A stretch of 64,000 nt of DNA from assembly GCA_965215505.1 (NCBI GenBank), contig OZ244065.1, forward strand, positions 3,104,001 to 3,168,000. Reading direction: 5' to 3'. The stretch is from Capsulimonadaceae bacterium (lineage in GTDB: Bacteria; Armatimonadota; Armatimonadia; Armatimonadales; Capsulimonadaceae). Positions 35,911 to 61,199 of this stretch are shown piece after piece (position 1 is the first letter of the stretch; each line of letters starts with the position of its first letter). Under the pieces are notes generated by a model. That model ran no database searches. It was not told the origin of the DNA and saw nothing but the letters and a program-made list of their open reading frames with translations. A program made the position numbers and the translations under genes.

Positions 35911-38900
35911 CTACGGCCCGGCGCTGACGGCGGTGGCGCTCCACAGGTTGCCCGGCCCGTTGTCGGTGTAGGGGCCGTAGCCCGCCACGGTGAAGTTGAA
36001 CGAAGGGTCCAAGCCCCACAGCATCGCCCGATTGTCCGTGTTGCCCCAGAGCAGGTGCGAGAGGCCGTCGGGACCCGTCGCCAGGGCGGTGGCGCTCCAC
36101 AGGTTGTTCGCGCCGTTGTCCGTGTACGGCCCGTACCCGGCCAGCGTGAAGTTGAACGCACTGTCTACGTTCCAGAACATGGCCCGCCGGTCGGTGTTGC
36201 TCCACAGCAGGTGGGTCAGGTTGTCCGGCCCGACCGACGCGCCCGTGACGCTCCACTTGTTCTGGGGTGCGCCGTCCGTGTACGGCCCGTAGCCCGCCAG
36301 CGTGAAGTTAAAGGAGCTGTCCACGTCCCAGAGCATGACGCGCCCGTCGGCGTTGTTCCAAGCGATCCGGCTCTTGCCGTCCGGCCCGGTCGCAAGGGCC
36401 GCCGCCGACCAGAGGTTGCCGGAGTCGCCGCTGACGGAGGTGTCGGTATAGGGGCCGTAGCCTGCGAGGCTGAAGTTGAACGCGCTGTCCACGTTCCACA
36501 GCATGACGCGGTGGTCGGTGTTGTTCCACAGCAGATGCACGACGTTGTCCGGGCCGACCGAAACCGCCGTCGCGCTCCACTTGTTGTTCGCCGCCCCGTC
36601 GGTGTAGGGGCCGTAGCCGGCAAGGCTGAAGTTGCCGCTGTCGTCCACCGTCCACAGCATGACGCGCCCATCCGTGTTGTTCCACAGAAGGTGCGAAACG
36701 CCGTCCGCGCCCGTCGCCACCGCCGTCGCGTGCCAGACGTTCTGCGGCGCTCCGTCCGTGTACGGCCCGAAGCCGTTCAGCGTGAAGGAGCCGTCGCCGG
36801 CCACGCTCCACAACATGACGCGACCGTCACTGTTGTTCCACAGAAGGTGCGTGTGCGTGGGGGGCTGCACCGCCAGCGGAGCGGAGGCGGTGGCACCGCC
36901 GGAGACGGCCGAGACGGTGATCGTCGCGGACGCAGTCACCGGGCGCGTGGCGACGGCGAACGTGGCGCTCGTCCGCCCCGCCGCGACGGTGACGCTGGCC
37001 GGGAACGAGGCCACGTCGGAGTTGCTGCTGGACAGCCAGACGGTGACGCCGCCGGCCGGTGCGGGCGCGGACAGCGTGACGGTCCCGGTCGTGGCCCCGC
37101 CGCCGACAACCTGGGCAGGGGAGAGCGTCACCAAGGCGGGCGCGGGCTGGGTGTTCGGGATCAGCGAAGTGCGGACCAGGAAGACCTGGCCGCCGCTGCG
37201 AAAGGCAAGCCCGTCCGCGCCCCAGCGGATCAGGCTGCTGGGGCCGGCGTAGGGGGTCGCGGCGACGCCGGAGACAGTCAGTGAGCCAACCGGGAGGAAG
37301 GTGTTGGGGTCGAAGGCTTGGATGAGGGCCGTCCCGTCATTGCCAAAATTGGGACTGCTCACAAAGAAGACGCGGCCGTCGGCGACATCCGGCTGCACAT
37401 TCGCGTTGTAAGGTACACCGGAGAACGTGCCGACCAGGCTGGCCGCCTCGGGGTCTATGACCTTGCCGTTTGTGGAGAAGAGGAGGCCGCTGTCGAACTT
37501 GATTGCCCCGCCCGGCGCTCCTCCGGTCGGCACATCTCCGACGGCGACGCCGCTGCTGCTGACGTTCAGGCGCACCAAGTTGCCGTTCGAGCCGTAGAGG
37601 CGCGAGGGCGAGGCGGAGAACGCCAGTGTATCAATTTGGTAGGGGTACTGGCCGAGGGCGTTGGGACGCTGGACGCCGTTGTCATAGATGCCCAGGCCGA
37701 CCTGGCCCGGACCGAACACATAAATCCGCTCCGAAATGGCGACGGAGTTCACACTGCCGGGGAGGACCTGGATGTCATTCGGGTAGAAAGGCCCGTCAAA
37801 GCTCGCGTCGCCGCCGAGATGAAACAGCGGATCAGCCGAGTCCGTTGGCAGGTCCAGGTGACGGACGGCCGCCGCGCCGTTCAAGCCGACGAACAAAGAC
37901 TGCCCATTGTCGGAGAGGGCGAGTTTACCCGGCTCGCTGCCGATGAACACCGGGGCATCCATCACGCCCGTCAGTGGGTCGAACCCCACGATGCTGTTGC
38001 CGGGGCGGCCCCCTGGCACGACGGCACCGCTGGGGATGCTAGCATAGATCTTTGCGGTCACGCGGTCATAGATGAGGTCGTTGGAAGGAAGGTTCAGGCT
38101 GCGAACGCCGGCCGGGTAGCCAGGGTCACCAGCCGTATCCTGCACGGCCAGGGTCGCCTGACAACTCTGGGAACCATAGGCGGCGGTGACGCTGAAATTC
38201 GTGGTGGTAGTGACGGTGTTCGCGAGGAGCGGGAATGTCGCGGTCCGCGCGCCCGCCGGGACCGTGACGGAGGCGGGAACGGTGATCGCCTGCGTGTTAG
38301 TGGCGGAGAGAGTTACGGTGGCCCCGTCCGCCGGCGCGGACTGGGTCAGGGTGACGGTCCCTGTGGCCGCGGCCCCTGCGGCAAGGTTCGTCGCGCTGAG
38401 GGTCAGTGAGGCCAAGCCGGGAAAGCTGCGGGAGTCGATCAGGAAGAGCTGCCCACCACTGGTGCGGAACGCAAGCCCGTTCGCGCCGTAGGCGATGAGG
38501 TTGTCAGCCCTCCCGGAGACGCCCGAAAGGGTGAGCGCTCCCACGGGCCGGTAGGTGGCCGTGTCGTACTCGAAGATCTGGGCGGTGCTGCTGTTCCCCG
38601 TCGGGTCTCCGGTCAGGAAAAAGACGCGGCCGTTCGCGGCGTCGGAAGCAAGCGAAGTGCTGGAGCCGCCGAAGTAGGTCGTCGGGAACCCCGTGAAGCT
38701 GCCCAGGAGCGCTTGGGCGGTCGGATCAACCGCCTGCCCTGAGCTGCTGTAAATCAAACCGCCGTCGAACGAGAGGTCGGCGTTCGCCAGGTAGGCATAG
38801 GAACTCGTGTTGACGATGCCAGTTGCATTGGGGGTCATCGTGTAAAGGGTAGAGCCATAATCCCCGGTGCCGTACAGAACGCCTGTGGCGGGGTTAAACT

Positions 38901-39435
38901 TGATGAAGTAGGCACCGTCGTGGTCGGGAGTCGTGGTGGGTCTCTGGACGGCGTCGTCGAAGACCGCTACGCCGGCGATGTCCGGCGACACTCCCGTATA
39001 CCGGCGGGCGACCGCGACTGAGTGAGGGTTGCCGGGCAGGACGGCAAGGCCGGCGGCATTATAGTTGCCGAAAAACGAGGCACTCCCCAGGCTGAACTGC
39101 AAGCCCGCCGTCTGAGTCGGCAGGCTGACGCGGCGGACGGCGGCGGCACCATCCAGGCCGACATACAGGAACTGCCCGTCGTCCGAGACGGCCAGACGAT
39201 TCGGCTCGCTCCCGACGAACACCGAGGGGCCGACCGTGCCGGTGACCGGATCAACCGGCGTGATGCTGTTGCCGCCGACCCCGACGCTGCTGGGGACGCT
39301 GGCGTAGATCTTCGCGGTGTGCGCGTCATAAATGATGTCGTTCGTGACGAGTGAAACCTGGCGCACGTTCTGCGCCTGCGCTGTGGACAGCGGGGCGCAC
39401 GCCAGAGCGGCGAGGAGGGGGGCGATCTTTTTCAA
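35911..39435 (-). CDS. Array member 1: signal peptide + 2x(beta-propeller + Ig-like) + six-repeat SAGP C-terminal module (35911-~36858)
   Basis: TTG start giving MKKIAPLLAALACAPLSTAQA. Duplicated NDIIYD..TAKIYAS/GSEP..LA.SD propellers and TGTVTL..PAPAGG..VTV Ig units; six HLLWNN-DGRVMLW..GPYTD repeats. Confidence 0.85.
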   Translation of the reverse strand: MKKIAPLLAALACAPLSTAQAQNVRQVSLVTNDIIYDAHTAKIYASVPSSVGVGGNSITPVDPVTGTVGPSVFVGSEPNRLAVSDDGQFLYVGLDGAAAVRRVSLPTQTAGLQFSLGSASFFGNYNAAGLAVLPGNPHSVAVARRYTGVSPDIAGVAVFDDAVQRPTTTPDHDGAYFIKFNPATGVLYGTGDYGSTLYTMTPNATGIVNTSSYAYLANADLSFDGGLIYSSSGQAVDPTAQALLGSFTGFPTTYFGGSSTSLASDAANGRVFFLTGDPTGNSSTAQIFEYDTATYRPVGALTLSGVSGRADNLIAYGANGLAFRTSGGQLFLIDSRSFPGLASLTLSATNLAAGAAATGTVTLTQSAPADGATVTLSATNTQAITVPASVTVPAGARTATFPLLANTVTTTTNFSVTAAYGSQSCQATLAVQDTAGDPGYPAGVRSLNLPSNDLIYDRVTAKIYASIPSGAVVPGGRPGNSIVGFDPLTGVMDAPVFIGSEPGKLALSDNGQSLFVGLNGAAAVRHLDLPTDSADPLFHLGGDASFDGPFYPNDIQVLPGSVNSVAISERIYVFGPGQVGLGIYDNGVQRPNALGQYPYQIDTLAFSASPSRLYGSNGNLVRLNVSSSGVAVGDVPTGGAPGGAIKFDSGLLFSTNGKVIDPEAASLVGTFSGVPYNANVQPDVADGRVFFVSSPNFGNDGTALIQAFDPNTFLPVGSLTVSGVAATPYAGPSSLIRWGADGLAFRSGGQVFLVRTSLIPNTQPAPALVTLSPAQVVGGGATTGTVTLSAPAPAGGVTVWLSSSNSDVASFPASVTVAAGRTSATFAVATRPVTASATITVSAVSGGATASAPLAVQPPTHTHLLWNNSDGRVMLWSVAGDGSFTLNGFGPYTDGAPQNVWHATAVATGADGVSHLLWNNTDGRVMLWTVDDSGNFSLAGYGPYTDGAANNKWSATAVSVGPDNVVHLLWNNTDHRVMLWNVDSAFNFSLAGYGPYTDTSVSGDSGNLWSAAALATGPDGKSRIAWNNADGRVMLWDVDSSFNFTLAGYGPYTDGAPQNKWSVTGASVGPDNLTHLLWSNTDRRAMFWNVDSAFNFTLAGYGPYTDNGANNLWSATALATGPDGLSHLLWGNTDNRAMLWGLDPSFNFTVAGYGPYTDNGPGNLWSATAVSAGP

Positions 39436-39541
39436 GGGACGTTCTTTCGTTGGGAAGGGGCCGATGGGGCAGCCGACACGGGGCGACGGGCTCAGGGCGG
39501 GCGCGGCCACGACGGTCGCACCTCTCCTCCCTTTATCATAC

Positions 39542-39557
39542 AGCACGAACCATGCCA
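39542..39557 (-). promoter_or_regulatory. Sigma54-like promoter for member 1
   Basis: Minus strand TGGCATGGTTCGTGCT (GG-N10-GC). Confidence 0.5.
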
Positions 39558-39606
39558 AAACGGCCGGAACCAGGCAGAAATACGAACTAATTTACCGGCG
39601 CGGCCT

Positions 39607-42174
39607 CTACGGCCCCGCCGAGACGGCGGTGGCGGCCCACAGGTTGCCGGGGTCGAGGCTGACGAAATCGTCCGTGTACGGGCCGTAGCCGGCGACGGTG
39701 AAGTCGAACGCGGAGTCCACGCCCCACAGCATAGCCCGGTGGTCGGTGTTGTTCCACAGGATGCGGCTGACGTTGTCCGGGCCGGTCGCCAGGGCCTTCA
39801 CCGACCACAGGTTCTGCGGCGCGTCGTCGGTGTAGGGGCCGTAGCCCGCCAGCGTGAAGCTGAAATCGGCGGCGACGTTCCAGAACATGGCCCGGCGGTT
39901 CGAGTTCCCCCACAGGAGGTGCGTCCCATTGTCCGGGCCGACCGAAACCGCCGTGGCGTGCCAGTCGTTGCCGGGGTCGTAGGAATGGGGATCGGGGATG
40001 ACGGAGTCGTCGGTGTAGGGACCGTACCCGGCATAAGCCAGCAGGCTGAAGCCGCCGTCCACGTCCCAGAGCATGGCGCGGTGGTCGGCGTTGTTCCACA
40101 GGATGCGGCTGACGTTGTCCGGGCCGGTCGCAAGGGCCGTGGCCCTCCAGGGGTTGTAGGACTGGCCGCCTCCCACGCTGTCGTCGGTGTAGGGGCCGTA
40201 CCCGGCCAGCGTGAAGGAGGACTCGTCGGTGCCACCGTTCCAGAGCATGACGCGGTTGTCCGTGTTGTTCCACAGCAGGTGGACCGCGTTGTCCGGCCCG
40301 ACCGAGATCGCCGCCGCGCTCCACAGGTTCGTGGGGGAGCTGTTGACCGAGGTGTCGGTGTAGGGGCCGAAGTAGGCGGCGCCGCTGACGCCGCCCGCGT
40401 CGTCCACGGTCCAGACCATGACCCGGCCGTCGGTGTTGTTCCACAGGACGTAGCTGCGGCCGTCCGGCCCGGTCGCCAGAGCGGTGGCGCTCCACTTGTG
40501 TGTCTTCAGGGGGGCGTTGTCGGCGTAGGGGCCGAAGCCGTGGGGTGTGAAGGTGCCGTCGCCGGCCACGCTCCACAGCATGACGCGCCCGTCGGCGTTG
40601 TTCCAGAGCAGGTGCGTGTGACCGCCCGCGACTCCCGCCGCGCCCTCATAGGCCCCGATGGTGGGCGGGTCCGGGCGACCCTTGCCGTCCTTGTCGGTGG
40701 TGACGCCGCCGAGGAACACGCCCCCGCCGATGCAGGGCGAGCCGGCCCGGAGGTGCAGGTCGCCCCCGGCGGCATTGACGAACAGCGGGTCAGCATCGAT
40801 CACGATGCCGCCTGGCCTAATGTTCCCGCTCAAATAGCCGCCCTGTATGTCACAGCCGTCACAGGAGACGAGATCCACAGTCCGGGCGATCTCTCCGCCC
40901 CTGTCCCCATAGACGATACAGTCGGAGGGGCCGTGCCCATAAAGGCCGTTGTAAAAGCCGCCGCCGTCAGAGGCGGCGTTGCCGGTGATGGTGCAGCTCG
41001 TCACGGAGCCGCTCCCGTTGTAAACGCCGCCGCCGACGGCGGCCGTGTTGCCGCTGATCGTGCAGTCGCCGATCACGCCGACGCTGAAGACGCCGCCGCC
41101 GTTGTAAACGCCGCCGCCGCCGCCGCTGGCCGTGTTGCCGCTGATGGCGCAGCGCGTCACCGTGCCGATGCTGGAAACGCCGCCGCCGTTGCCGCCGGCC
41201 GTGTTGCCGCTGATCGTGCAGCCCGTCACCGTGCCCTCGTTGGTGAGGCCGCCGCCCGCCCCGCCGTTCGGGGAGACGCCGCTGGCCGTGTTCCCACTGA
41301 TCGTGCAGCCCGTCACCGTGCCGCTGTTGTCCATGCCGCCGCTGGAAGGCGCGGTGTTCTCGCTGATCGTGCAGCCCGTCACCGCGCCGCCGTGGAAGAC
41401 GCTGCCGCCGTTGAAGACGCCGCCGCCGCTGACGCCGGCGGTGTTGCCGCTGACCGTGCAGTGCGTCAGCGTGCCCGCGTCGTAGCTTGCAACGCCGCCG
41501 CCGGAGGTGGTGGCCGTGTTACCCGTGATCGTGCAGTCCGTCACCGCGTCGTAGCCGTAGACGCCGCCGCCGACACTGGCCGTGTTGCCGCTGACGGCAC
41601 AGCCCGTCAGCGTGCCCTCGTTGTAGACGCCGCCGCCGAGGTTTGCCGTGTTGCCGGAGATCGTGCAGTCCGTGAGTGTGCCGTAGTTGGCGACGCCGCC
41701 GCCGCCGGAGCCGGCGGACGTGCTGCCGGTAATCGCGCAGTGCGTCACCGTGCCGTAGTTGTAGATGCCGCCGCCGCTGTCCGTGGACTCGTAGCCGTTC
41801 CTGACGGTGAAGCCGCTGACCACCGCGCCCCGCTCGCCGTCCCGCAGGGTGAAGCCCCGGTGGTTGGCGGACGCCGAGCCGCCGCAGTCAATGATCGTCC
41901 GGGCCGGGTCGCCGCTGGCGGACCGGACCGTGAGGCTCTTGCCGCCGAAGTCAATGTCGCGGTTGCCCGGCCCGCCGTAGGTGCCGTCAGCCACGAGGAC
42001 CGTGTCGCCGCTGGACGCAGCGTTGACAGCGGCCTGGATGGTCGGGTAGCCGGCCGTCGGGACGTTGAGCGTGGCGGCATGGCCGGACGCGGCGAGGAAG
42101 GTCAGAGCCAGCAGGGCCAGGAGCGGCCCGCCGGGGGGGAGCAGACGGCGCGGGCGAGTGGTTTCAGGCGGCAT
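39607..42174 (-). CDS. Array member 2: signal peptide + right-handed beta-helix (CTISGNTA..GGG repeats) + six-repeat SAGP module (39607-~40620)
   Basis: YPTIQAAVNAASSGDTVLVADGTY, many ~22-aa T.CTISGNTA-GGGV.N repeats and ADPLFV..DLHL..GSPCI. Confidence 0.88.
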   Translation of the reverse strand: MPPETTRPRRLLPPGGPLLALLALTFLAASGHAATLNVPTAGYPTIQAAVNAASSGDTVLVADGTYGGPGNRDIDFGGKSLTVRSASGDPARTIIDCGGSASANHRGFTLRDGERGAVVSGFTVRNGYESTDSGGGIYNYGTVTHCAITGSTSAGSGGGGVANYGTLTDCTISGNTANLGGGVYNEGTLTGCAVSGNTASVGGGVYGYDAVTDCTITGNTATTSGGGVASYDAGTLTHCTVSGNTAGVSGGGVFNGGSVFHGGAVTGCTISENTAPSSGGMDNSGTVTGCTISGNTASGVSPNGGAGGGLTNEGTVTGCTISGNTAGGNGGGVSSIGTVTRCAISGNTASGGGGGVYNGGGVFSVGVIGDCTISGNTAAVGGGVYNGSGSVTSCTITGNAASDGGGFYNGLYGHGPSDCIVYGDRGGEIARTVDLVSCDGCDIQGGYLSGNIRPGGIVIDADPLFVNAAGGDLHLRAGSPCIGGGVFLGGVTTDKDGKGRPDPPTIGAYEGAAGVAGGHTHLLWNNADGRVMLWSVAGDGTFTPHGFGPYADNAPLKTHKWSATALATGPDGRSYVLWNNTDGRVMVWTVDDAGGVSGAAYFGPYTDTSVNSSPTNLWSAAAISVGPDNAVHLLWNNTDNRVMLWNGGTDESSFTLAGYGPYTDDSVGGGQSYNPWRATALATGPDNVSRILWNNADHRAMLWDVDGGFSLLAYAGYGPYTDDSVIPDPHSYDPGNDWHATAVSVGPDNGTHLLWGNSNRRAMFWNVAADFSFTLAGYGPYTDDAPQNLWSVKALATGPDNVSRILWNNTDHRAMLWGVDSAFDFTVAGYGPYTDDFVSLDPGNLWAATAVSAGP

Positions 42175-42252: not shown

Positions 42253-44316
42253 TCACGGCCCCGCCGAGACGGCGGTGGCGCTCCACAGGTCGCCCGGCCC
42301 GTTGTCGGTGTACGGGCCGTACCCCGAGACGGTGAAGTTGAACGCGCCGTCCATGCTCCACAGCATGGCCCTGTCGTCGGTGTTGCCCCACAGGATGCGG
42401 CTCAGGCCGTCCGGACCGGTCGCCACCGATGTGACGCTCCACAGGTTGTTCGCGCCGTTGTCATTGTACGGGCCGAAGCCCGCCAGCGTGAAGGCCCCCA
42501 GGCCGTCCAGGTTCCAAATCATCATCCGCCGGTCCGCGTTGCCCCAGACGAGGTGGATCTTCTCGTCCGAGCCGACCGAGACGGCCTGGGCGCTCCAGAC
42601 GTTCGCGGGCGAATTGCTGACGAAGCTGTCGGTGTACGGCCCGTAGCCCGTCACGCCGAACTGGAAGGCGGGGTTCACGTTCCAGAGCATGACGCGCCCG
42701 TCCACGTTGTTCCAGGCGATGTGCGATTCGTTGTCCGGCCCGGTGGCGAGGGCGACGGCGCTCCACAGGTTGCCGGGGCTGCCGTTGACGGAGTTGTCCG
42801 TGTACGGTCCGAATCCGGCCAGGGTGAAGCTGAAATCCTGGGCGACGTTCCACAGCATGACCCGGTGGTCGGTGTTGTTCCACAGCAGGTGGACCACGTT
42901 GTCCGGGCCGACCGAAACCGCCGTCGCGCTCCACTTGTTCTGGGGTGCCCCGTCCGTGTACGGCCCGTAGCCCGCGTAGGTGAAGCCGCCGCTGTCGTCC
43001 ACGGTCCAGAGCATGACGCGCCCGTCCGTGTTGTTCCACAGCAGGTGCGAGAGGCCGTCCGCGCCGGTCGCCACCGCCGTCGCGTGCCAGACGTTCTGCG
43101 GCGCTCCGTCCGTGTACGGCCCGAAGCCGTTCAGCGTGAAGGAGCCGTCGCCGGCCACGCTCCACAGCATGACCCTGCCGTCCGTGTTGTTCCACAGAAG
43201 GTGCGTATGTGGGGGCAGGACCGTGTGCGTCACATGGCCGTCGGCATAGGCGGTCGTCGGGGAGCCGTCGGCATAGGGCGGCGTGTCCTGGAAGAGTACA
43301 GTGGTAGCCGGGTCAGTGATGGAGGCGAGGCTGACGCCGCTGAGGGCGGCGTTCGGGACAAACGGCTGGCCGCGCGTGTTGGAGAGAGGTTTGAGGCTTC
43401 TCGTATATGGTGCGAGGGCTGCCTGGAACTCCGACACGTTCCCCATCGGCGGGTAGACCTCATCATAGTCCTGAGTGTACTGCACGATGGCGATAAAGAG
43501 TTGTTTCGCGCGGCTCGTCGTGGTGACGTTCGGGTCGCCGAACTCGATGCCGCCGCGTTCCAGGTGGCCGTCCGCATAGGCGATTGTGGGAGCGCCGTCT
43601 ACATAGGGGGCGGTGTCTTGGATGAGGATTGTATGGATCGGGTCGGGGACGGCGCTGAGGAAGACGCCGCTGAGGGCGGCATTAGGGACGAACGGCTGGC
43701 CCGTAGGCGAGTAGAAGATGCGGTGACTGTGAGTGAAAGGATAGACTGCGGTTTGTAGTTCATCCAGCGTGTGCATCGGCGGATATGTCTCGTCGGCATC
43801 CTCCGTGTACTCGATTATGGCAATCGCCACGGCCTTCTCCCGCTCGGTGATGATGGCCGTCGCGTCGCCGTACTCGACGCCGCCGTGTTCCACATGACCG
43901 TCCAGGAACACGACCGTGGCCTGGCCGTCCCCATGCGGCGCGGAGTCGCGGACCACCTCGATGACATCCACATCGGTCGTGTAGGGCGGATACGTTCCTC
44001 GGCTGAGGGCGGCGTTGGGCGTGTAGGGCAGGCCGGTATCCGGGCAGCGGAATACGGAGGCATCCCCGACATACGGCATCAGCGCCGCCTGGAACTCCTG
44101 CGCGTTCCCCATTGGCGGGAAGTTCTCGTCGTTGTCCTGGGCATACCGGGTGAAGGCCGCTTGGAGCCGGTGCAGATTGGCCGCGCAGGCGGCGGTGGTG
44201 TCCGCCCCCGATGCCATGCGACGGGCCGTGCCGAGCCACTGCCCGATCACCAGGAAGGCCAGGAGGCCCAGCCCCAGAAGAACGGCCCCCTCGGCCAGGA
44301 ATGACGGTTTACGCAT
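42253..44316 (-). CDS. Array member 3: N-terminal TM + three DUF1559/H-X9-DG-like units + six-repeat SAGP module (42253-~43209)
   Basis: Start MRKPSFLAEG at 44316; three copies of Y.QD.DE.(F/Y)PPM...PNAALS...(FL/YA)DGH. Confidence 0.8.
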   Translation of the reverse strand: MRKPSFLAEGAVLLGLGLLAFLVIGQWLGTARRMASGADTTAACAANLHRLQAAFTRYAQDNDENFPPMGNAQEFQAALMPYVGDASVFRCPDTGLPYTPNAALSRGTYPPYTTDVDVIEVVRDSAPHGDGQATVVFLDGHVEHGGVEYGDATAIITEREKAVAIAIIEYTEDADETYPPMHTLDELQTAVYPFTHSHRIFYSPTGQPFVPNAALSGVFLSAVPDPIHTILIQDTAPYVDGAPTIAYADGHLERGGIEFGDPNVTTTSRAKQLFIAIVQYTQDYDEVYPPMGNVSEFQAALAPYTRSLKPLSNTRGQPFVPNAALSGVSLASITDPATTVLFQDTPPYADGSPTTAYADGHVTHTVLPPHTHLLWNNTDGRVMLWSVAGDGSFTLNGFGPYTDGAPQNVWHATAVATGADGLSHLLWNNTDGRVMLWTVDDSGGFTYAGYGPYTDGAPQNKWSATAVSVGPDNVVHLLWNNTDHRVMLWNVAQDFSFTLAGFGPYTDNSVNGSPGNLWSAVALATGPDNESHIAWNNVDGRVMLWNVNPAFQFGVTGYGPYTDSFVSNSPANVWSAQAVSVGSDEKIHLVWGNADRRMMIWNLDGLGAFTLAGFGPYNDNGANNLWSVTSVATGPDGLSRILWGNTDDRAMLWSMDGAFNFTVSGYGPYTDNGPGDLWSATAVSAGP

Positions 44317-44358
44317 TGTGCTTCCCTTCCGCGTCCGATCTCCGAACGTGGTGAGGGC

Positions 44359-44387: not shown

Positions 44388-44416
44388 GGAGGCAGCGGAA
44401 AGGCTTCCGGGACCGA

Positions 44417-46573
44417 TCAAGGCCCGGCGCTGACGGCGGTGACGCCCCACAGGTTGCCGGGCGCGTTGTCCGTATAGGGGCCGTAGCCGGCCACGCTGAA
44501 GTCGAGGGCGTTATCCACGCCCCACAGCATCGCCCGGTCGTCCGTGTTGCCCCACAGCAGGTGCGAGAGGCCGTCGGGACCCGTCGCCAAGGCGGTGGCG
44601 CTCCACAGGTTGTTCGCGCCGTTGTCCGTGTACGGCCCGTACCCAGCCAGCGTGAAGTTGAACGCACTGTCCACGTTCCAGAACATCGCCCGGCGGTCCG
44701 TGTTGCTCCACAACAGGTGCGTCAGGTTGTCCGGCCCCACCGAGAGGCCCACGGCGCTCCACTTGTTCTGCGGCGCACCATCGGTGTACGGCCCGTAGCC
44801 CGCCAGTGTGAAGCCGAACGAACCATCTACGTCCCAGAGCATGACGCGGGTGTCTGTGTTGTTCCACAGGATGCGCGTCAGCCCATCACCGCCAGTGGCA
44901 AGGGCGGTGGCCGTCCACAGGTTGCCTGGTGCGTTGTCGGTGTACGGGCCGTAGCCCGCCAGCGTGAAGGTGAAGTCGGAGGCGACATTCCAGAGCATCG
45001 CCCGGTGGTCGGTGTTGCTCCACAGCAGGTGGACGGTGTTGTCCGGGCCGACCGAGACGCCAACGGCGCTCCACTTGTTCTGCGGGGCGTTGTCCGTGTA
45101 GGGACCGTAGCCCGCCAGCGTGAAGTTGCCGCTGTCGTCCACGGTCCATAGCATGACCCTTCCGTCCGTGTTGTTCCACAGAAGGTGCGAAAGGCCGTCC
45201 GGCCCGGTCGCCACCGCCGTCGCGTGCCAGACGTTCTGCGGTGCGCCGTCGGTGTAGGGGCCGAAGCCGCTAAGGGTGAAGCTGCCGTCTTGTGCGATGC
45301 TCCAGAGCATGACGCGCCCGTCGCTGTTGTTCCACAGAAGGTGCGTGTGGCCGGAGGGGGAGAAGGCACCCGCGTACTCATATGCGCCGATGTCGGGGGG
45401 GCCGGCGCGTCCCGCCCCGCGCTGGTCCGTGGGGGGAGTGCCGACGGCTGTGCCGGCGTCAATACAGGGGGAGCCGGGCAGGAGCGCCCTCGTCTGGGTG
45501 GGGCCACCGTTGTTCTGCAAGGGGCCAAGGCGCGGGTCGGCGCTGAGGTTGCCGCCGCCGTTTGTGTAGACCGCCCCATAAACCGATGCCGAAACGAGAT
45601 CGCAGTGGGTGATGGTCATGGTGCCGGGGTTGCTGCCGTCGCCATTGTTGAAGAAGATCTCGTCGCCTCCACCTTGCGGGGAGCTATCGCCGTAGAAAAT
45701 GTCGTTGGTCAGCGTCGTCGTGCCCCGGACGAGGGCGATCGCGCCGCCGCCGCCGTAGACGTTGTCATAGGTCGTCACCGTGTTTCCCGTGAAGGTACAG
45801 TTGGTCACCGTCAGGATGCCGGTGAGGCTGGAGATGCCGCCACCGCCGTTGCTGCCGGCGACGTTCCCCGTCACGGTGCAGTCGGTCAGCGTCAGCGTGA
45901 CGCCGCCGTTGCCGTTGTAGATGCCCCCGCCGGCACTGCCGCTGGTGTTGCCAACGAGGGTGCAGCCGGTCAGTGTCATCGTGCCATAGGTGAAAATGCC
46001 GGCCCCACCCTGTTGGACAGTGTTACGGGCAACCGTACAGTTGACCAGCGTCAAGGTGCCGTCGTTGAACACACCGCCACCGTTTTCGGCCGTGTTCCCC
46101 TGCATGACGCAATTCGTCAGCGTCAGCGTCCCGAAGCGGTTGTCCAGGCCGCTGCCGGCGGGGTCGTTCTGAATGATCAGGTTGCTGGCGGAAGACGTGG
46201 CGGTGTCGGACCCGAAGACGAGGATGGGCTGGGCGCTCCGCGCTGGGATCGCGCTCCCATCAAGGACCACGCCCGCCGTAGGACCCTGGATGGTCACGCC
46301 GACGTAAGCGAAAAGGAGGCCGTTGACGATGGGGATGGTCTGCCGGGTGGCAAAGACGGTCGGGTCGAAGGTGATGACATCCCCATCGCCGTCCGCCCTG
46401 CTGGTGTCGAGGGCCGCGCGCAGGGACCCCGGCCCACTGTCGGCGGTGGTGGTGACGACCAGCGTGGCGGCGCGGCTCAGGCTCGCAAAGCCGAAGAAGA
46501 GGGCCACGACGGACAGCAGAGTCCAGAAAGCGTGGGACCGGGGGCGGGCGTGAACGACTTGAGTGAGCAGCAT
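44417..46573 (-). CDS. Array member 4: signal peptide + beta-helix/choice-of-anchor-Q-like domain + six-repeat SAGP module (44417-~45349)
   Basis: [20 protein letters not shown] repeats and [30 protein letters not shown]...DQRG..R...DIGAYE. Confidence 0.87.
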   Translation of the reverse strand: MLLTQVVHARPRSHAFWTLLSVVALFFGFASLSRAATLVVTTTADSGPGSLRAALDTSRADGDGDVITFDPTVFATRQTIPIVNGLLFAYVGVTIQGPTAGVVLDGSAIPARSAQPILVFGSDTATSSASNLIIQNDPAGSGLDNRFGTLTLTNCVMQGNTAENGGGVFNDGTLTLVNCTVARNTVQQGGAGIFTYGTMTLTGCTLVGNTSGSAGGGIYNGNGGVTLTLTDCTVTGNVAGSNGGGGISSLTGILTVTNCTFTGNTVTTYDNVYGGGGAIALVRGTTTLTNDIFYGDSSPQGGGDEIFFNNGDGSNPGTMTITHCDLVSASVYGAVYTNGGGNLSADPRLGPLQNNGGPTQTRALLPGSPCIDAGTAVGTPPTDQRGAGRAGPPDIGAYEYAGAFSPSGHTHLLWNNSDGRVMLWSIAQDGSFTLSGFGPYTDGAPQNVWHATAVATGPDGLSHLLWNNTDGRVMLWTVDDSGNFTLAGYGPYTDNAPQNKWSAVGVSVGPDNTVHLLWSNTDHRAMLWNVASDFTFTLAGYGPYTDNAPGNLWTATALATGGDGLTRILWNNTDTRVMLWDVDGSFGFTLAGYGPYTDGAPQNKWSAVGLSVGPDNLTHLLWSNTDRRAMFWNVDSAFNFTLAGYGPYTDNGANNLWSATALATGPDGLSHLLWGNTDDRAMLWGVDNALDFSVAGYGPYTDNAPGNLWGVTAVSAGP

Positions 46574-46826: not shown

Positions 46827-48494
46827 CTATGGCCCAGCGCTGACGGCGGTGACGCTCCACAGGTTGCCCGCGCCGTTGTCGGTATAGGGGCCGTACCCGG
46901 CCACCGTGAAGCTGAACGAGTTATTGATGCCCCACAGCATCGCCCGATTATCCGTGTTCCCCCACAGCAGGTGGCTCATCCCATCCAGGCCGGTCGCCAG
47001 GGCGGCAGCACTCCACAGGTTGCCGGGCGCGTTGTCGGTGTAGGGGCCGTAGCCGGCGAGCGAGAAGCCGAACGCACTGTCCACGTTCCAGAGCATGGCC
47101 CGATGGTCCGTGTTGCCCCACAGCAGGTGCGTCAGGTTGTCCGGCCCGACCGACAACCCGACCGCGCTCCACTTGTTGCCGGCCGCCCCGTCGGTGTACG
47201 GCCCGTACCCGGCCAGGGTGAAGGTGAAGTCCGGGGCGACGTCCCACAGCATGACGCGCCCGTCGGTGTTGTTCCAGACGATCCGGCTGACGCTGTCCGG
47301 GCCGGTGGCGAGGGCAGTGGCTGACCAGAGGTTGCTCGGGCCGTTGTCGGTGTACGGCCCGAACCCGGCCAGGGTGTAGTTAAAGGACGAGTCCACGTTC
47401 CAGAGCATGACGCGGTTGTCGGTGTTGTTCCACAGAAGGTGCGTCACGTTGTCCGGGCCGACCGAAACCGCCGTCGCGCTCCACTTGTTCAGGGCCGCGC
47501 CGTCCGTGTACGGCCCGTAGATCGCCAGGGTGAAGACGCCGGCGTCGTCCACGGTCCAGAGCATGACGCGGCCGTCGGTGCTGTTCCACAGAAGGTGGCT
47601 CTTGCCGTCCGGCCCGGTCGCGAGGGCCGTGGCGCTCCACCGGCTGTCGGGCGGGATGACGACGGCGGGCTGCCCGCCGGGGGCGCGTCTGGCCGAGGGG
47701 ACCTTGTTGCCGGTGTACGGCCCGAAGCCGTGCAAGGTGAAAGAACCGTCGGCGGCGATGCTCCACAGCATGACGCGCCCGTCCGTGTTGTTCCACAGCA
47801 GGTGCGTGTGGCTGGTGGCGGCGGCTGCCGGGGCGGTGGCGATGTCGAAGCGGTTGAGGAACAGGCTGTAGTGCGGGGTGAGGCCGGTGTAGGCGATCCG
47901 GTAGATGTCCGGGGCGGCGTCCAGGATGCCGACGAACGGGGCGGAATTGTCGCCCCTGGCGCTGAACGTGCCGTTCCGGGTGAACGAGGCGAGCAGGCCG
48001 CCGTCCTTGCCGAACGCCTGGACCTGCACGGTGAAGGCCCCCGCGCCGGAGGCTGCCGTCGTGGGCACGGCGAGCTGCGCCCCGCCGCCGTAGACCCCGC
48101 GCGGGAAGGAGAGCGACACCGTGCCGCCGTCCATCGCGTCCAGCACCCGGTCGCCGGGCGCGAAGTTGCCGTTCAGCGTACCCTCCGCCTGGACATTCCC
48201 CGCCTGGAGGAGCGTGGCGAAGAGGCCGCCGTTCGAGTCGGTCAGCCCGTGCCCGGCCTCGCTGACGATGACGGCGGTGCCCAGGGAGGAAACCTGGCCG
48301 AACGGGTCGCTGATGCGGGTGGCGCGGTCCCCCAGGCCCGCCCAGTCCAGGCGGTCGGTGCCGGACAGGGAAGCCCGGCTGGTCAGGAGCGTCTGACACC
48401 GCGCCGGCCCGGCGAGGGCGGCGGCGGCGAGGACGACGGCCAGCAGCAGCAGACAGAGGCGGGCCGGGAGTGCGGCGAGCGTGCGGACTAACAT
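46827..48494 (-). CDS. Array member 5: signal peptide + ~190-aa uncharacterised beta-rich domain + six-repeat SAGP module (46827-~47810)
   Basis: Signal peptide ending ARC-Q; TSRASLSGTDRLDW..GNFAPGD..GDNSAPFVGI domain; long loop insertion in repeat 1. Confidence 0.82.
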   Translation of the reverse strand: MLVRTLAALPARLCLLLLAVVLAAAALAGPARCQTLLTSRASLSGTDRLDWAGLGDRATRISDPFGQVSSLGTAVIVSEAGHGLTDSNGGLFATLLQAGNVQAEGTLNGNFAPGDRVLDAMDGGTVSLSFPRGVYGGGAQLAVPTTAASGAGAFTVQVQAFGKDGGLLASFTRNGTFSARGDNSAPFVGILDAAPDIYRIAYTGLTPHYSLFLNRFDIATAPAAAATSHTHLLWNNTDGRVMLWSIAADGSFTLHGFGPYTGNKVPSARRAPGGQPAVVIPPDSRWSATALATGPDGKSHLLWNSTDGRVMLWTVDDAGVFTLAIYGPYTDGAALNKWSATAVSVGPDNVTHLLWNNTDNRVMLWNVDSSFNYTLAGFGPYTDNGPSNLWSATALATGPDSVSRIVWNNTDGRVMLWDVAPDFTFTLAGYGPYTDGAAGNKWSAVGLSVGPDNLTHLLWGNTDHRAMLWNVDSAFGFSLAGYGPYTDNAPGNLWSAAALATGLDGMSHLLWGNTDNRAMLWGINNSFSFTVAGYGPYTDNGAGNLWSVTAVSAGP

Positions 48495-48581: not shown

Positions 48582-50186
48582 TTACGGCCCGGCGCTGACG
48601 GCGGTGACGCTCCACGGGTTGCCCACGCCGTTGTCGGTGTAGGGGCCGAAGCCCGCGACGGTGAAGTTGAAGGCACTGTCCATGCCCCAGAGCATCGCCC
48701 GATAGTCGGTGTTCCCCCACAGCAGGTGGCTCATCCCGTCCGGGCCGGTCGCGACCGCCTGCGCGCTCCACAGGTGCTGGGGCGTGTCGTCGGTGTACGG
48801 CCCGAAGCCCGCCAGCGTGAAGGAGAAGTCCGGGTTCACGTCCCAGAACATCGCCCGGCGGTCGGTGTTCGTCCACAGGATGTGCTGCACGTTGTCCGGG
48901 CCGACCGAGATGCCGGCCGCCGACCACAGGTTCTGGGGTGCCCCGTCCGTGTACGGTCCGAAGCCTGCCAGCGTGAAGCTGGAGTCCGGGTTCACGTCCC
49001 AGAGCATGACGCGGTTGTCCGTGTTGTTCCACAGGATGTGGCTCAGGCCGTCCGGCCCGGTGGACAGGGCGGTGGCCGACCACAGGTGCTGGGGGGTGTC
49101 GTCGGTGTAGGGGCCGAACCCGGCCAGCGTGAAGCTGAAGTCAGACTGGACACTCCACAGCATGGCCCGGTTGTCGGTGTTGCTCCACAGCAGATGCACG
49201 ACGTTGTCCGGCCCGACCGAGACGGCCGTGGCGCTCCACTTGTTCTGCGGTGCCCCGTCCGTGTACGGCCCGTAGCCCGCCAGCGTGAAGGTGCCGGCGT
49301 CGTTCACGGTCCAGAGCATGACGCGCCCGTCGGTGTTGTTCCACAGAAGGTGCGAGACGCCGTCCGCGCCGGTCGCCACCGCCGTCGCGCTCCACTTGTT
49401 CTGCGGCGCACCGTCGGTGTACGGGCCGAAGCCGTTGAGCGTGAAGGAGCCGTCGGCGGCGAGGCTCCAGAGCATGACGCGCCCGTCGGTGTCGTTCCAG
49501 AGCAGGTGAGTGTGAACAGTCGCCGGGGTGATCGAGGAGACGAAGATCAGGTTGCTCGCCTGGACGGCCGCGCCGGACTGGTAGTTGTTGATCAGCGGGA
49601 TATGGTCAAAGGGGGAGCCCTGGTTGGAAACGGGCACGGCGGCGATCTGGTCCATGACGGCGAGGCTGGCGGCGTCCGTGACCTTGCCGAAGACGGTGAA
49701 GCCGCCGTTCTGGTTGTCCAGGTTTGCGGCGTTCGAGTCGGACTCGTTGAAGAACCACTGGCTGGTGGCGCTGTTCGGATCACTGCCGACCTTCGCCATC
49801 GCGATCGTGCCGCGCGTGTTGGACAGGTGGAACTCATTGACGACGGGCGGGAAGGCGGTGATCGTCTGGACTTGGCCGTTCGGGAAGGTGTAGCCGCCCC
49901 CCTGGATGACGAAGCCCGGCGGCGAGCGGTGGATGAATGAGTTGTTGTAGGCACCCGTGGTGACGTAGTGAAGGAAGTTCGCCACCGTCTGCGGGGCCAC
50001 GTCCGGGTAGAGCTGGACGGAGATGTTGCCCAGGCTCGTGTGGAAGACGTAGACGGGGTCCGTGCTGCTCTGCGCGCGCGCCGGGGTGGCCGCGGCCCCC
50101 AGGACGAGGACGCAGAGGACGAGCGCGCGCGCCGGCGGGCAGGCGCGGAGGCAGGCGTTGACGAGGCTCAAGAGGCGGCGGGACAT
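48582..50186 (-). CDS. Array member 6: signal peptide + cyclophilin-type peptidyl-prolyl isomerase + six-repeat SAGP module (48582-~49514)
   Basis: APQTVANFLHYV, IHRSPPGFVIQGGG, NTRGTIAMAK...SATSQWFFN and FTVFGKV. Confidence 0.92.
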   Translation of the reverse strand: MSRRLLSLVNACLRACPPARALVLCVLVLGAAATPARAQSSTDPVYVFHTSLGNISVQLYPDVAPQTVANFLHYVTTGAYNNSFIHRSPPGFVIQGGGYTFPNGQVQTITAFPPVVNEFHLSNTRGTIAMAKVGSDPNSATSQWFFNESDSNAANLDNQNGGFTVFGKVTDAASLAVMDQIAAVPVSNQGSPFDHIPLINNYQSGAAVQASNLIFVSSITPATVHTHLLWNDTDGRVMLWSLAADGSFTLNGFGPYTDGAPQNKWSATAVATGADGVSHLLWNNTDGRVMLWTVNDAGTFTLAGYGPYTDGAPQNKWSATAVSVGPDNVVHLLWSNTDNRAMLWSVQSDFSFTLAGFGPYTDDTPQHLWSATALSTGPDGLSHILWNNTDNRVMLWDVNPDSSFTLAGFGPYTDGAPQNLWSAAGISVGPDNVQHILWTNTDRRAMFWDVNPDFSFTLAGFGPYTDDTPQHLWSAQAVATGPDGMSHLLWGNTDYRAMLWGMDSAFNFTVAGFGPYTDNGVGNPWSVTAVSAGP

Positions 50187-50375: not shown

Positions 50376-53300
50376 TCACGGCCCGGCGGAAACTGCGGTG
50401 ACGCTCCACTGGTTCTGGTCAGCGTTATCGGTGTACGGCCCGTAGCCCGCCACGGTGAAGTTGAACGCCGAGTCCACGCCCCAGAGCATGGCCCGGTAGT
50501 CCGTGTTGGCCCACAGCAGGTGGTTCAGGCCGTCCGGCCCCGTCGCAAGGGCCGCGGCCGACCACAGGTTGCCGGGCGCGTTGTCGGTGTAGGGGCCGTA
50601 CCCGGCCAGCGTGAAGCCGAAGGAGCTGTCCACGTTCCAGAGCATCGCGCGCCGGTCGGTGTTGCTCCACAGCAGGTGCGTCACGTTGTCCGGCCCGACC
50701 GAAACCGCCGTGGCGCTCCACTTGTTCTGCGCCGCCCCGTCGGTGTACGGCCCGTAGCCGGCCAGGGTGAAGCTGAAGTCCGGGGCCACGTCCCAGAGCA
50801 TGACGCGCCCGTCGGTGTTGTTCCAGGCGATCCGGCTGACGTTGTCCGGCCCGGTGGCAACCGCCGCCGCCGACCAGAGGTTGTTCGCGCCGTTGTCGGT
50901 GTACGGCCCGAACCCGGCCAGGGTGAAGTTAAAGGACGGGTCCACGTTCCAGAGCATGACGCGCCCGTCGGTGTTGTTCCACAGCAGGTGCATCACGTTG
51001 TCCGGCCCGACCGAGACGGCCGTGGCGCTCCATTTGTTCTGCGCCGCCCCGTCGGTGTACGGCCCGTAGCCGGCCAGGGTGAAGCTGCCGGCGTCGTTCA
51101 CGGTCCAGAGCATGACGCGCCCGTCCGTGTTGTTCCACAAGAGGTGCGAAACGCCGTCGCCCCCCGTCGCGACGGCCGTGGCGCTCCACTTGTTCTGCGA
51201 GGCACCGTCGGTGTACGGCCCGAAGCCGTTGAGCGTGAAGGAGCCGCCGGGGGCGACGCTCCAGAGCATGACGCGCCCGTCGCCGTTGTTCCACAGAAGG
51301 TGCGTGTGTGTGACGCCCCCCTGGATGGTGAGGGACAGGGCGGCGGAGGTGCCGCCGCCGGGGCCTGGGTTCACGACGGTCACGGGGTACACGCCGACAG
51401 GAAGGAAGACGGACGACGGCAGGTAGAAAGTGAGCTGCGTCCTGTCGTCGCTGAGGCTCTCCGGGGAGAACACATGGCTGCCGAGGTGGATGACCGAGTG
51501 GTGCATGAAGTTGCCGCCGGTGAGCGTCACGGAGGAGCTGCTCCGGATGGGCTGCATGCTGCTCGGGCTGATGCCGGTGAGGACCGGCACGGGGTAGGGG
51601 CCGTCGGTGATGGCTTGGGTGGTGCCGGCCGTGCCGCCGCCGGGGGCGCTGTTGGTCACGCTGACGGTGACGAGGCCCGGCGCAGCCGCGTCCGGGCCGG
51701 AGGCGATCAGGCTGTAGCCGGAAATGAAGGCCGTGACCCGCGTCGGCGAAACATAGGTCGTGCTGAAGTTGAAGCCGCCCCAGTTGACGATGGTGCTGGG
51801 CGTGAACCCCGTGCCGTTGACGGTCAGGGTGAAGCCGGGGAGTCCGTCGGCGACAAGCGAGGGCGGGCTGATGCTCGTGATGGTGGGCGCTGGGTTGACG
51901 ACCGTGAGGGTCGGCTGGGGGGTACTCTGCGCCGCCCCGCGCTGGCCGGGGGTGTAGGCGTAGAACGTCAGGATCGTCCCGACGGTCATCTGGGCGGCCG
52001 GGAGGCGCACGGTGATCCGCGTGTGGTCGGAGGACGCCGACAGCACGGTGAGAGGGGTCTGACCGGGGGCGACGTAGCCGAAGGCGATCTGCGTCTCCGG
52101 GTAGAGGCCCGTGCCGGCCAGGGTGAGGGTGGTATCCGGGCTGCCGGCGGGCAGGGAGGCGGGGCTGACTGAGGTGAGGGTCGGGACGGGGCGCACCGGC
52201 AGGACGACATACGGCCCGGACCCGGCCCGGCCGTCCGGGTTCGTGACGGTGACGGTGTGCGTCCCCGCCGTAAGGTCCGCAGACGGGATGTGGGCGATGA
52301 TCTGCGTCTCCGCGTAGACGGTCGCCGTCAGGGGGACGCCGTCATAGGTGACGACGGCCCCGACCTGGAACCCGGTCCCCGTGATGTCCACCGTCTGGTC
52401 CGGGTCGCCGGCGTCCGGCGGCTGGGGCTGGATGAGCTGGATCGTGGGGGCGGCGGGGGCGGCCCGCCCCGCCGGCGTGAGCAGTAAGGCGTGAAAGCCA
52501 GACGCGGGCTGCCCCGCCGGCTGCCCGATCGCGGCGATCTGCCCGACGTCATTGATGCCGACGGCCTCCCACAACTGGAATGCGCCCGCGTTGGGTGCCT
52601 GTATGTGCAGGTTGAGGTCGTACATCAGCCCGGCTTGTTCCAGGAAAGCGCCCGAAGGCCCGTTGGAAAGGTAGCTCGTGCCCACCAGGTCCTTGGACGA
52701 GTTCAGCGCGGTGGGGTAGGTGCTGAAGGCGGGGAAAGCGGAGTTGCTCAACGAGTAGGGGTCGAAGAACAGCCCGCCGAGGTCCACGGCGCTTATGGTC
52801 GTGTCCGCCGGGTTGAAGGCGGACACATTGGCACTCGCCCAGAAGACCTGGGCGCTTGCCGGCAGTTGTCCGTCCGTCAGCGCCCCCGGAGGCGGCACGG
52901 GCGAGTCCGTGCCGGTGCCGGAGACGAAGTGCCCCGCGGTGGCCCCCAGGTGATCGGGAACCCAGACGAAGGGGTTGACGGACACCGTCGGCGTGGAGAA
53001 GTTCCCGTAAATGTCACCGTGCGCGTCCGTGCGTAGGAGTACGAACCTGTACCCAGAGTACAGCCCGTTCGGGTCGAAACCGGGCGGGTCGCCCAGCGGA
53101 ATCGAGTTCTGCCCGTCGTAAAGAGTCAGCACCCCGTTCAGGAGGCCGATGACACGCCCCGAGTCGTCCAGCAGGGACGGCACCAGCAGGCCGAGGTCCT
53201 TCATCTGCGGGTTGGAAGGGGCGCCGCCCGTGCCGCCCGGCGTCCACAGGAAGCCATGCGGGGGGTCGATGTTGCGGTAGCCCTGGGGGGTCAGGGTGAG

Positions 53301-60470: not shown

Positions 60471-61199
60471 CTAGCCGGCGCTGACGGTGAGCGTCGTGGT
60501 GTCGAACGTGATCTGCATCGGCGTCCCCCCCGGCACACTCGCGCTGGTCCCGTTCAGCGTCACGACCACCTGCTTGTTCTGATCCTCGCCGGTGATGATG
60601 TTAATCAGCGAGGTCAGGGTCGCCCCCTGGATGCTCACGGCGGCGAGCTGGAACGCGGACGGGTTATCGGCGGAATAGGTCCCGTCCGGCTGCTGCGTGA
60701 ACGAAACCGGGCCGGAGGTCGCCAGGGCGGGCAGGGTGACGCGGTCGGCGACGGCCCCGCCGGCGGCGGCACTCAGGTCGTCCGCCTCGGCGGTGACGGA
60801 GAAGGTCGTGAGGGTGAAGTGGGCCGGCAGGGGGGCGGCCCCGGCCTGGCCGCCATTGGCGGCGGTCAGCGTCACGACCGGCTTGGGGCTGATGCGTAGG
60901 GTCGCGCTCGCCACGCTCGAAAGGTTGATCGTCTGCTTCGTGAACGGGTAGACGTTCGTGTTGGCGTCGTGCGGCGTGCGCGCGGCGGTGCGGGCGGCAC
61001 CGACGACCGGGTTGGTGAGGTCAACGGTGGCGGCCTGCTTGTCCAGCCCGAAGGGGTTGGCGACGGTGACGTTGGGGACGTTCACCTGGGCCGAGTCGAG
61101 GTTCTTGACGACTCCGCTGCACCCGGAGAGGACCGGACCGGCGGCGAGCAGCGCGGCAAGGGCGATGGCGCGCGGCAGAAGGCGGGGACGAAGATGCAT
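60471..61199 (-). CDS. Putative lipoprotein (Thr/Ala-rich beta domain)
   Basis: Lipobox VLSG-C after a hydrophobic stretch; GGAGG RBS; ends 29 bp upstream of the barrel gene. Confidence 0.75.
   Translation of the reverse strand: MHLRPRLLPRAIALAALLAAGPVLSGCSGVVKNLDSAQVNVPNVTVANPFGLDKQAATVDLTNPVVGAARTAARTPHDANTNVYPFTKQTINLSSVASATLRISPKPVVTLTAANGGQAGAAPLPAHFTLTTFSVTAEADDLSAAAGGAVADRVTLPALATSGPVSFTQQPDGTYSADNPSAFQLAAVSIQGATLTSLINIITGEDQNKQVVVTLNGTSASVPGGTPMQITFDTTTLTVSAG

Follow-up and report, generated by a model that had tools for sequence, protein, structure and literature searches.

A tryptophan-rich six-unit module predicted to fold as a closed beta-propeller on exported proteins of a Capsulimonadaceae bacterium

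Six-bladed propellers of the YWTD, NHL and TolB types are non-catalytic binding domains. The lectins of the AAL family and RSL are rich in tryptophan (Trp); in RSL a two-blade unit occurs three times, a trimer completing the six-blade ring. In WD40 proteins the repeat follows the consensus V.SVAFSPDG..LASGS.DGTVRLWDV. Pereira and Lupas (2022; PMC9218822) describe highly repetitive propellers whose recent amplification started from a single blade or a small number of blades. Here we describe a Trp-rich module from a Capsulimonadaceae bacterium (assembly GCA_965215505.1, contig OZ244065.1, positions 3,104,001 to 3,168,000; this stretch of 64,000 nucleotides (nt) is referred to as the window). 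On the minus strand of the window, nine genes at 35911-58722 each end in a module of 311-338 amino acids (aa) made of six units of about 52 aa. As modelled, the module very probably folds on its own into a closed beta-propeller of six blades with four strands each. Structure prediction and sequence comparison lend good support to its fold, its closure and the constancy of its repeats, and it represents a sequence family that is new and uncurated, with a fold that is very common. The best overall explanation, to which we give a probability of about 0.5, combines such a closed propeller with a role as a binding or retention module.

Repeat structure and predicted fold

The focal module lies at the C-terminal end of gene 1, within the 1215-codon open reading frame (ORF) 35911..39558 (-), where it takes up ORF residues 901-1215 (860-1174 of the probable product). 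The stop codon is 35911-35913 and a probable TTG start at 39435, with a purine-rich stretch upstream, gives a protein of 1174 aa with a signal-like N-terminus (MKKIAPLLAALACAPLSTAQAQ, TTG read as Met). A six-frame motif scan found 52 G(Y/F)GP(Y/F)TD sites in the window, every one on the minus strand and clustered at nine gene ends, each of which then runs into SAGP and a stop codon. Units were delimited at the motif H/R-(L/I/V)-x-W; in the focal module they begin at ORF residues 904, 956, 1008, 1064, 1116 and 1168 and measure 52, 52, 56, 52, 52 and 48 aa.

35914..36858, minus strand: focal module, 315 aa, C-terminus of gene 1 (gene 35911..39435, probable TTG), predicted six-bladed beta-propeller
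36694..36849, minus strand: unit 1, probably strands B, C and D of blade 1 plus strand A of blade 2 (WD40-like register)
36538..36693, minus strand: unit 2, even type, end SVGPDNVV (motif scan, consensus)
36370..36537, minus strand: unit 3, 56 aa, 4-aa insertion in the D-A loop (motif scan, alignment)
36214..36369, minus strand: unit 4, even type (motif scan)
36058..36213, minus strand: unit 5, odd type (motif scan)
35914..36057, minus strand: unit 6, 48 aa, whose last strand LWSATAVSAGP is probably strand A completing blade 1

The first pattern found six units in eight of the nine proteins and five in gene 2, where unit 2 begins YVLW; with Y allowed, the total is 54 (9 x 6), in agreement with the initial annotation, which had counted exactly six units in all nine. 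A unit is typically 52 aa and the last one 48 aa, loop insertions lengthening some to 56-69 aa, and the modules are 67-86% identical in protein sequence to the focal one. Common to all nine are 18 invariant Trp and an invariant GP(Y) motif, so that the three Trp per repeat noted at the outset are found throughout. The same holds for the SAGP terminus, present in all nine window proteins and in 14 of the 16 six-unit C-terminal modules of the 6.18-Mb genome, the other two ending in STGP and SAAP. Position by position, the consensus of odd units ends in ATG.DG.S and that of even units in SVGPDN, the final unit being shortened to SAGP; the terminal SAGP would be this internal turn motif cut between SVGP and DN by the chain end, not an extra sorting signal. 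At the DNA level, Tandem Repeats Finder reports a 156-nt period with 73-76% matches, which makes the repeats similar but not the very similar sequences they had been taken for.

To count units beyond the window, a 52-position unit hidden Markov model (HMM) was applied to 150 representative homologues. Exactly six contiguous units were found in 115 of them, from 87% down to about 31% identity. In most of the remainder, either two groups of units (3+2 or 2+3) stand about 48 aa apart, a spacing that would suit one undetected unit, or the array has five units, or the sequence is a short fragment or one of two giant multi-array proteins. Besides its 16 C-terminal modules, the genome of the window encodes one stand-alone module, with six units by eye (the HMM found three), and two atypical proteins outside the window. 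L027 (G000:C1:1827012-1830437) is a frame of 1141 aa in which GloVer repeats and a linker rich in Pro and Thr accompany 12 units, which suggests two tandem six-bladed propellers rather than one. L026 (G000:C1:2769128-2770579) has a signal peptide and just two units (B-C-D, A-B-C-D, A in the strand letters defined below), followed by a Gly-rich region and an unrelated domain with a weak DUF5907 match; three copies of it could, as in RSL, complete a ring of six blades. Unit number in this genome is six or a multiple of six, with L026 as the one two-unit exception. The proposal of a fixed repeat number is thus borne out by most homologues and by the 16 C-terminal and one stand-alone modules, but not by the 12-unit and 2-unit proteins.

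An alternation of two unit types, giving three two-blade periods, had also been proposed. Between window paralogues, units in the same position are 68-79% identical; identities are 61-69% for odd-odd, 59-65% for even-even and 54-64% for odd-even comparisons. In 86 of 112 six-unit homologues, units of the same parity are more alike than units of different parity, against 29 for a period-3 control; the difference in identity is more than 5 points in 46 homologues and more than 10 points in 20. These comparisons uphold the alternation in a modest form: it appears real and old, though weak in this window. The propeller would have arisen from a two-blade unit taken three times.

Structure prediction of the focal module with AlphaFold2 used a 69-row alignment in which the nine window modules were joined by 60 whole homologues taken from the representative library. 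The resulting model has a mean predicted local distance difference test (pLDDT) score of 94.8 and a predicted template modelling (pTM) score of 0.92, and it contains 24 strands of 6-9 residues, four per unit, and no helix. It was compared by VIA-align with 48,161 PDB representatives, and in a second VIA-align run with the list returned by Foldseek. Six-bladed propellers head both VIA-align lists, the top matches extending over model residues 1-315. From the large database these are the nidogen YWTD propeller 1npe (Z 23.2, root-mean-square deviation (rmsd) 2.5, 244 aligned), the Brat NHL propeller 1q7f (Z 23.1), ApoER2, LRP4 and LDLR (about 22), TolB (21.8), CylK (21.8) and Kelch (about 20), followed by the fucose lectins AofleA (7c37, 19.9), monomeric RSL (4csd, 19.0) and SapL1 (6trv, 18.8), PknD (18.8) and sialidases (18-19). 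On the Foldseek list, LRP6 (8dvm) reaches Z 24.0 and AAL (1ofz) Z 20.1 with 266 aligned. Over both lists, TolB has Z values of 22.6 and 21.8. Foldseek itself places first the seven-bladed lectin CV39L (6gxs, E 8.8e-11, TMq 0.59, 16% identity), and after it 6-phosphogluconolactonases, WD40 proteins, SapL1 and the PLL/PHL lectins (PLL, PLL2, PLL3, PHL). Modelling and fold search, the check suggested when a six-bladed propeller was first proposed, therefore return a high-confidence six-bladed propeller whose best VIA-align matches are propellers of six blades. These neighbours single out no function for the module.

Strands within a blade were assigned from the loop lengths of the model and from a weak alignment with WD40 structures. 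About 10 residues separate FTLxGYG from the next strand of the model, while the remaining three connections are tight turns. A profile of the nine modules matched the RACK1-like chain 7qiy_O (whole-sequence E 0.0037, domain i-E 0.17) and ERCC8 (E 0.006) among PDB sequences; the stretch of 7qiy_O aligned to it is presumably strands A-B-C of the first RACK1-type WD40 blade. In the register we infer, strand A is W.ATAV(A/S)(T/V)G, strand B HLLWNN, strand C RVMLW and strand D FTLAGYG, with a long, indel-prone D-A loop (PYTD....N) after it. The module would accordingly open with strand B of blade 1 and end with strand A of the same blade, the C-terminal ...WSATAVSAGP strand closing the ring by strand exchange between the termini. 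This Velcro-type closure, already part of the initial annotation, gains indirect support from homologues whose last residues, unlike those of the window modules, are the ...GP(Y/F) at which strand D stops (21 of 150). In 20 of these, an extra W.A..(L/V)S.G.D strand stands immediately ahead of the first unit, so that they start with what is the final strand of the window modules; in the remaining one (P0145) the upstream sequence reads ...TAVSLSVGSD, with the Trp absent. The two classes appear to be circular permutants, the window class starting with B and ending with A. Both keep 24 strands and cut the ring at different points, as would be expected of a closed toroid.

Variation among the nine paralogues is concentrated in loops. 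D-A loops hold 54 of the 62 inserted residues and C-D loops are least conserved, while strands, A-B turns and B-C turns are equally conserved. Across the family, as represented by the 69-row alignment, only Trp, Gly and Pro residues are invariant.

Sequence relations and distribution

In a scan of the window proteins against Pfam and NCBIfam, no model covers the module. The only curated family touched is PF07483 (W_rich_C): scanned by itself, the module reaches 35.7 bits (cut-off 26.2) with 0 single stretches passing, and full window proteins score 16-24 bits, below the cut-off. Matches at E <= 0.01 were obtained for 26 of 69 homologues. The alignments span profile positions of about 25-88 of 105, mostly 38-74, and never cover the whole domain. 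A PF07483 search of the window's genome found nothing, as did the same search of control genomes, and the family was not found in genome G041. The module appears to be at best a distant, blade-level relative of W_rich_C, not a member. Small FG-GAP/W_rich_C clusters in the ESM Atlas (0.94 and 0.91, low recognition (1192)) serve as leads only.

Another curated model, PF23809 (Phage_holin_9), scores 28.2 bits against a cut-off of 27 in gene 4 (44417-46630 -, residues 539-629) and also matches genes 5 and 8 and 5 of 69 homologues. A holin function was rejected, the region being an all-beta propeller in prediction, and the Pfam model itself may contain Trp-rich propeller-like sequence. The WD40 family of Pfam gave no match at E <= 0.1; weak matches were obtained to WD_LRWD1 (18.4 against 30.7) and Beta-prop_WDR36 (8 of 69 members), and PDB matches lie at E 0.004-0.02. 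The DNA pattern of DGRVMLW retrieved ordinary WD40 genes, and two candidates from a genome contig scan, L024 and L025, were rejected as family members for being ordinary WD40 proteins. With the nine-module profile, 177,635 PDB sequences gave six matches at E <= 10, and no lectin was among them.

The representative library holds 1243 clusters (50% identity) at E <= 0.001 and 210 at E <= 1e-30. Matches to the module profile occur in 24 of 41 relatives (21 of 24 in the same family, 2 of 16 in the sister family), with up to 76 in one genome. In a phylum-wide sample at E <= 1e-10, 9 of 201 genomes match, all of one family (8/11), with 0 of 189 in the other 39 families; at the same threshold 0 of 201 genomes matched in a second phylum set, reached through L025. 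In the genomes sampled at this threshold the module thus appears confined to one Armatimonadota family, and the nearest named public records are Capsulimonadaceae and Armatimonadales metagenome-assembled genomes. The portions consulted of the literature on W_rich_C, choice-of-anchor proteins, Capsulimonas and Armatimonadota propellers (PMC2605481 and PMC9218822 included) contain no description of the module, and the paper found for PF07483 only lists the domain. In the main text of PMC9218822, 'armatimonad' and 'tryptophan' have 0 occurrences and the module family is not mentioned.

Passengers, neighbouring genes and function

All nine window proteins carry an N-terminal hydrophobic, signal-like segment. 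The regions preceding their modules, here called passengers, are mutually unrelated except for the trio of genes 2, 4 and 8 (beta-helix, PMP, choice_anch_Q). Gene 1 has a large passenger with weak matches only, and those of genes 3 and 5 have no family match. The longest ORF of gene 3 (42253-44667, minus strand) begins within the end of gene 4; its probable ATG at 44316 gives 687 aa with a hydrophobic N-terminus (MRKPSFLAEGAVLLGLGLLAFLVIG), a form with which representative P0005 agrees in length and N-terminus.

39610..40623, minus strand: gene 2 module (gene 39607..42174; passenger beta-helix with PMP repeats)
42256..43212, minus strand: gene 3 module (gene 42253..44316, probable ATG; passenger without family match)
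44420..45352, minus strand: gene 4 module (gene 44417..46573; passenger choice_anch_Q, beta-helix-like repeats)
46830..47813, minus strand: gene 5 module (gene 46827..48494; 17-aa loop insertion in unit 1)
48585..49517, minus strand: gene 6 module (gene 48582..50186; passenger cyclophilin-type peptidyl-prolyl isomerase)
50379..51311, minus strand: gene 7 module (gene 50376..53837; passenger HAF repeats and four TIG / choice-of-anchor Z repeats)
54010..54942, minus strand: gene 8 module (gene 54007..56238; passenger PMP repeats and choice_anch_Q)
56485..57483, minus strand: gene 9 module (gene 56482..58722; passenger seven GloVer choice-of-anchor repeats)
59191..60441, minus strand: P0151, FadL/PorV-like outer-membrane beta-barrel, possibly associated, directly upstream of the array
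60471..61274, minus strand: P0152, lipoprotein with LSGCSG lipobox, possibly associated, always paired with P0151 in relatives

Pairwise DNA identity among the nine modules is 70-83%. Exact shared runs of 100 nt (35914-36858 versus 42256-43212) and 73 nt (48585-49517 versus 54010-54942) were observed between modules otherwise 81-83% identical, and possibly represent gene-conversion patches.

On the plus strand, the array is flanked by a transglutaminase-like gene (34285-35127) preceding a Crp/Fnr-type regulator (cNMP-binding and HTH_Crp_2, 35124-35822), which is convergent with the first module gene; the two form a conserved flank of the module array. In a separate part of the window (3801-8087, minus strand), a secretin-domain protein adjoins a 1028-aa protein with adenylate/guanylate cyclase, STAND NTPase and tetratricopeptide repeat regions.

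Elsewhere in the genome, modules follow pro-kumamolisin (sedolisin-type protease) and further HAF, GloVer and choice_anch_Q proteins, and in homologues the passengers include GDSL lipases, astacin, Ig-like and fn3 domains, a GH85 C-domain and cyclophilin. Several passenger families bear NCBIfam 'choice-of-anchor' names. A choice of anchor within the genome was not demonstrated: five of seven choice_anch_Q-like ORFs have the module, and the other two lack a PEP-CTERM tail by eye. PF18962 (Por_Secre_tail) had no match in the genome, control genomes giving none either, and it did not match the modules in the Pfam scans. Of the 150 representatives, 116 carry the module at the C-terminus and 13 at the N-terminus, 12 consist of it alone and 9 have it placed otherwise.

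The module is predicted, tentatively, to serve exported proteins as a non-catalytic means of binding or retention. There is no sign of catalysis, because Trp, Gly and Pro are the only family-wide invariants. The module would hold Sec-exported passengers (beta-helix/PMP adhesin-like, GloVer, HAF, choice-of-anchor, TIG, cyclophilin and sedolisin-type protease) on a polymer of the cell envelope or matrix, with a glycan as the leading candidate. Several points weigh against such a role. The family-conserved Trp, Gly and Pro look structural and no conserved polar pocket was identified; the variable C-D and D-A loops fit paralogue-specific ligands at least as well as a common envelope ligand; and non-lectin propellers match the structure better than lectins do. 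The genome also encodes three exosortases and PEP-CTERM tails, so that the propeller is not needed as a sole anchor. Moreover, a surface placement of conserved residues is inferred and not observed, as are the register of the blades and their Velcro closure.

The same loops lend themselves to an outward-facing role, in which the module would be an adhesin head or a domain akin to a carbohydrate-binding module (CBM) that binds foreign glycans of plant, lichen, fungal or prey origin, its variable D-A and C-D loops setting the specificity of each paralogue. We regard this as unlikely, even though the enzymes among the passengers (GDSL lipases, astacin, GH85 C-domain and cyclophilin in homologues, pro-kumamolisin in the genome), the large expansion of the family within single genomes and the fucose-lectin neighbours, including AAL and the top Foldseek match CV39L, all accord with it: neither the Pfam nor the PDB profile scans revealed a sequence relation to lectin or CBM families, and the conserved aromatic residues may all be buried. 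The module could instead be a structural or oligomerising scaffold, for example of a lattice- or S-layer-like assembly without a small ligand, in line with the family-wide conservation of structural residues only. The 12-unit protein and the 2-unit protein, whose units stand ahead of a fibre-like region, show that blades can be combined in other ways, but stand-alone secreted modules exist and we consider a scaffold quite improbable. Least credible by far is that the C-terminal 310 aa form an autotransporter-type outer-membrane translocator barrel for beta-helix/PMP passengers. The module is indeed C-terminal, about 300 aa long, all-beta and placed after such passengers in genes 2, 4 and 8; however, the high-confidence model is a soluble propeller with short strands, the top 50 structural rows are all soluble propellers or propeller-containing entries with no barrel among them, the chain ends in SAGP and lacks a terminal aromatic residue, N-terminal and stand-alone modules exist as well, and no autotransporter family of Pfam matches.

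The neighbouring pair suggests a further alternative, in which the propeller is a sorting or docking domain recognised by the P0151 barrel and P0152, and is exported or surface-attached much as C-terminal domains of the type IX secretion system (T9SS) are by PorV. P0151 (416 aa, with a signal peptide) was modelled by AlphaFold2 as a beta-barrel, and Foldseek relates it to FadL (2r88, E 8.5e-6, TMq 0.43) and to chain F of the T9SS translocon (6h3i, 8gl6, E 3e-5 to 8e-5), which we take to be PorV. The NCBIfam model PorV_fam also matches (E 1.2e-4), the P0152-P0151 pair is kept in all 11 same-genus loci fetched, and the predominantly C-terminal position of the module would suit a sorting signal. 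Module genes follow directly after the pair, on the same strand, in 6 of 12 loci, with nine in the window, three each in G006, G016 and G015, two in G012 and one in G017. Yet the PorV_fam score is weak (21.8 bits against a cut-off of 90), the pLDDT of the barrel model is just 68.7, and FadL-type barrels usually import hydrophobic compounds. The N-terminal and stand-alone modules do not fit a C-terminal sorting signal, 11 genomes of the family have the module and no P0151 match, and two have P0151 and no module. In the other six loci the pair has no module gene downstream; in one of these, G002, frames on the antisense strand that resemble those over the Crp gene of the window indicate that a Crp-like gene, the same flank, adjoins the pair. 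Adjacency may therefore mark only a duplication hot spot, and the pair site can be read as a place where module genes multiply. When P0151 (residues 31-416) and the module were predicted as a complex, the scores were 0.07 and 0.00 against a mark of 0.32, controls not having been run. A functional link between the pair and the modules is possible, but recognition as a sorting domain is doubtful. About equally doubtful is a combined reading, suggested by the piling up of module genes beside the barrel-lipoprotein pair (0 to 9 copies at the site), in which the propeller would be the cargo tag of a lineage-specific surface display and an anchor to the cell's own envelope (capsule or glycan), serviced by P0151 and P0152. 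By analogy, and with similarly low confidence, the propeller would here replace the PEP-CTERM, T9SS or LPXTG tails carried elsewhere by 'choice-of-anchor' passengers.

Whichever role applies, hundreds of exported proteins from a bacterial lineage that has received little study begin or end with a domain of this uncurated family. With the assignment as a closed propeller of six blades, annotation gains a domain boundary and ligand work a stable, expressible unit. With its constant six, two-blade period, two permutations and 12- and 2-unit relatives, the family is also a clean natural case of propeller evolution. If the module is truly a surface anchor, it would constitute a new way of displaying proteins on diderm bacteria.

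Comparison with known propellers

W_rich_C and the module are both Trp-rich and mostly C-terminal on exoproteins. However, genuine cyanobacterial W_rich_C domains come as tandems of 2 or 4 units of 105 aa, and each unit, unlike the module, consists of one W-rich, blade-like stretch and about 60 other residues. With WD40 repeats there is a weak likeness in sequence, the module's ..A.AV..GPDG..HLLW.N.DGRVMLW.V running parallel to strands A-B-C of the WD40 consensus. The module differs from WD40 in its unit of 52 rather than about 40 aa, its six blades rather than the usual seven, the absence of a GH/WD dipeptide pair and its probable closure by a C-terminal strand A.

Among lectins, AAL, AofleA, SapL1 and RSL are six-bladed propellers like the module (Z 18.8-20.1) but rank below the non-lectin YWTD, NHL and TolB propellers (Z 22-24). 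The two-blade unit of RSL echoes both the two-blade period of the module and the two-unit protein L026; AAL and RSL stand alone, whereas the window modules are C-terminal on larger proteins. The lectin idea of the initial annotation thus remains an analogy. PLL, PHL and CV39L show a Foldseek likeness with modest TM scores and no HMMER match. In PMC12203525, PLL lectins are described as seven-bladed, while the module has six units.

The best structural likeness is to the YWTD (LDLR/LRP/nidogen), NHL and TolB propellers, which share six four-stranded blades with the module and align over about 240-250 residues at an rmsd of 2.5-3.2. Sequence identity to them is 5-15% with no Pfam match to these families, and the 52-aa repeat with its three Trp has motifs unlike theirs. 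Blades within one module are 54-72% identical, which fits the picture of amplified propellers given in PMC9218822.

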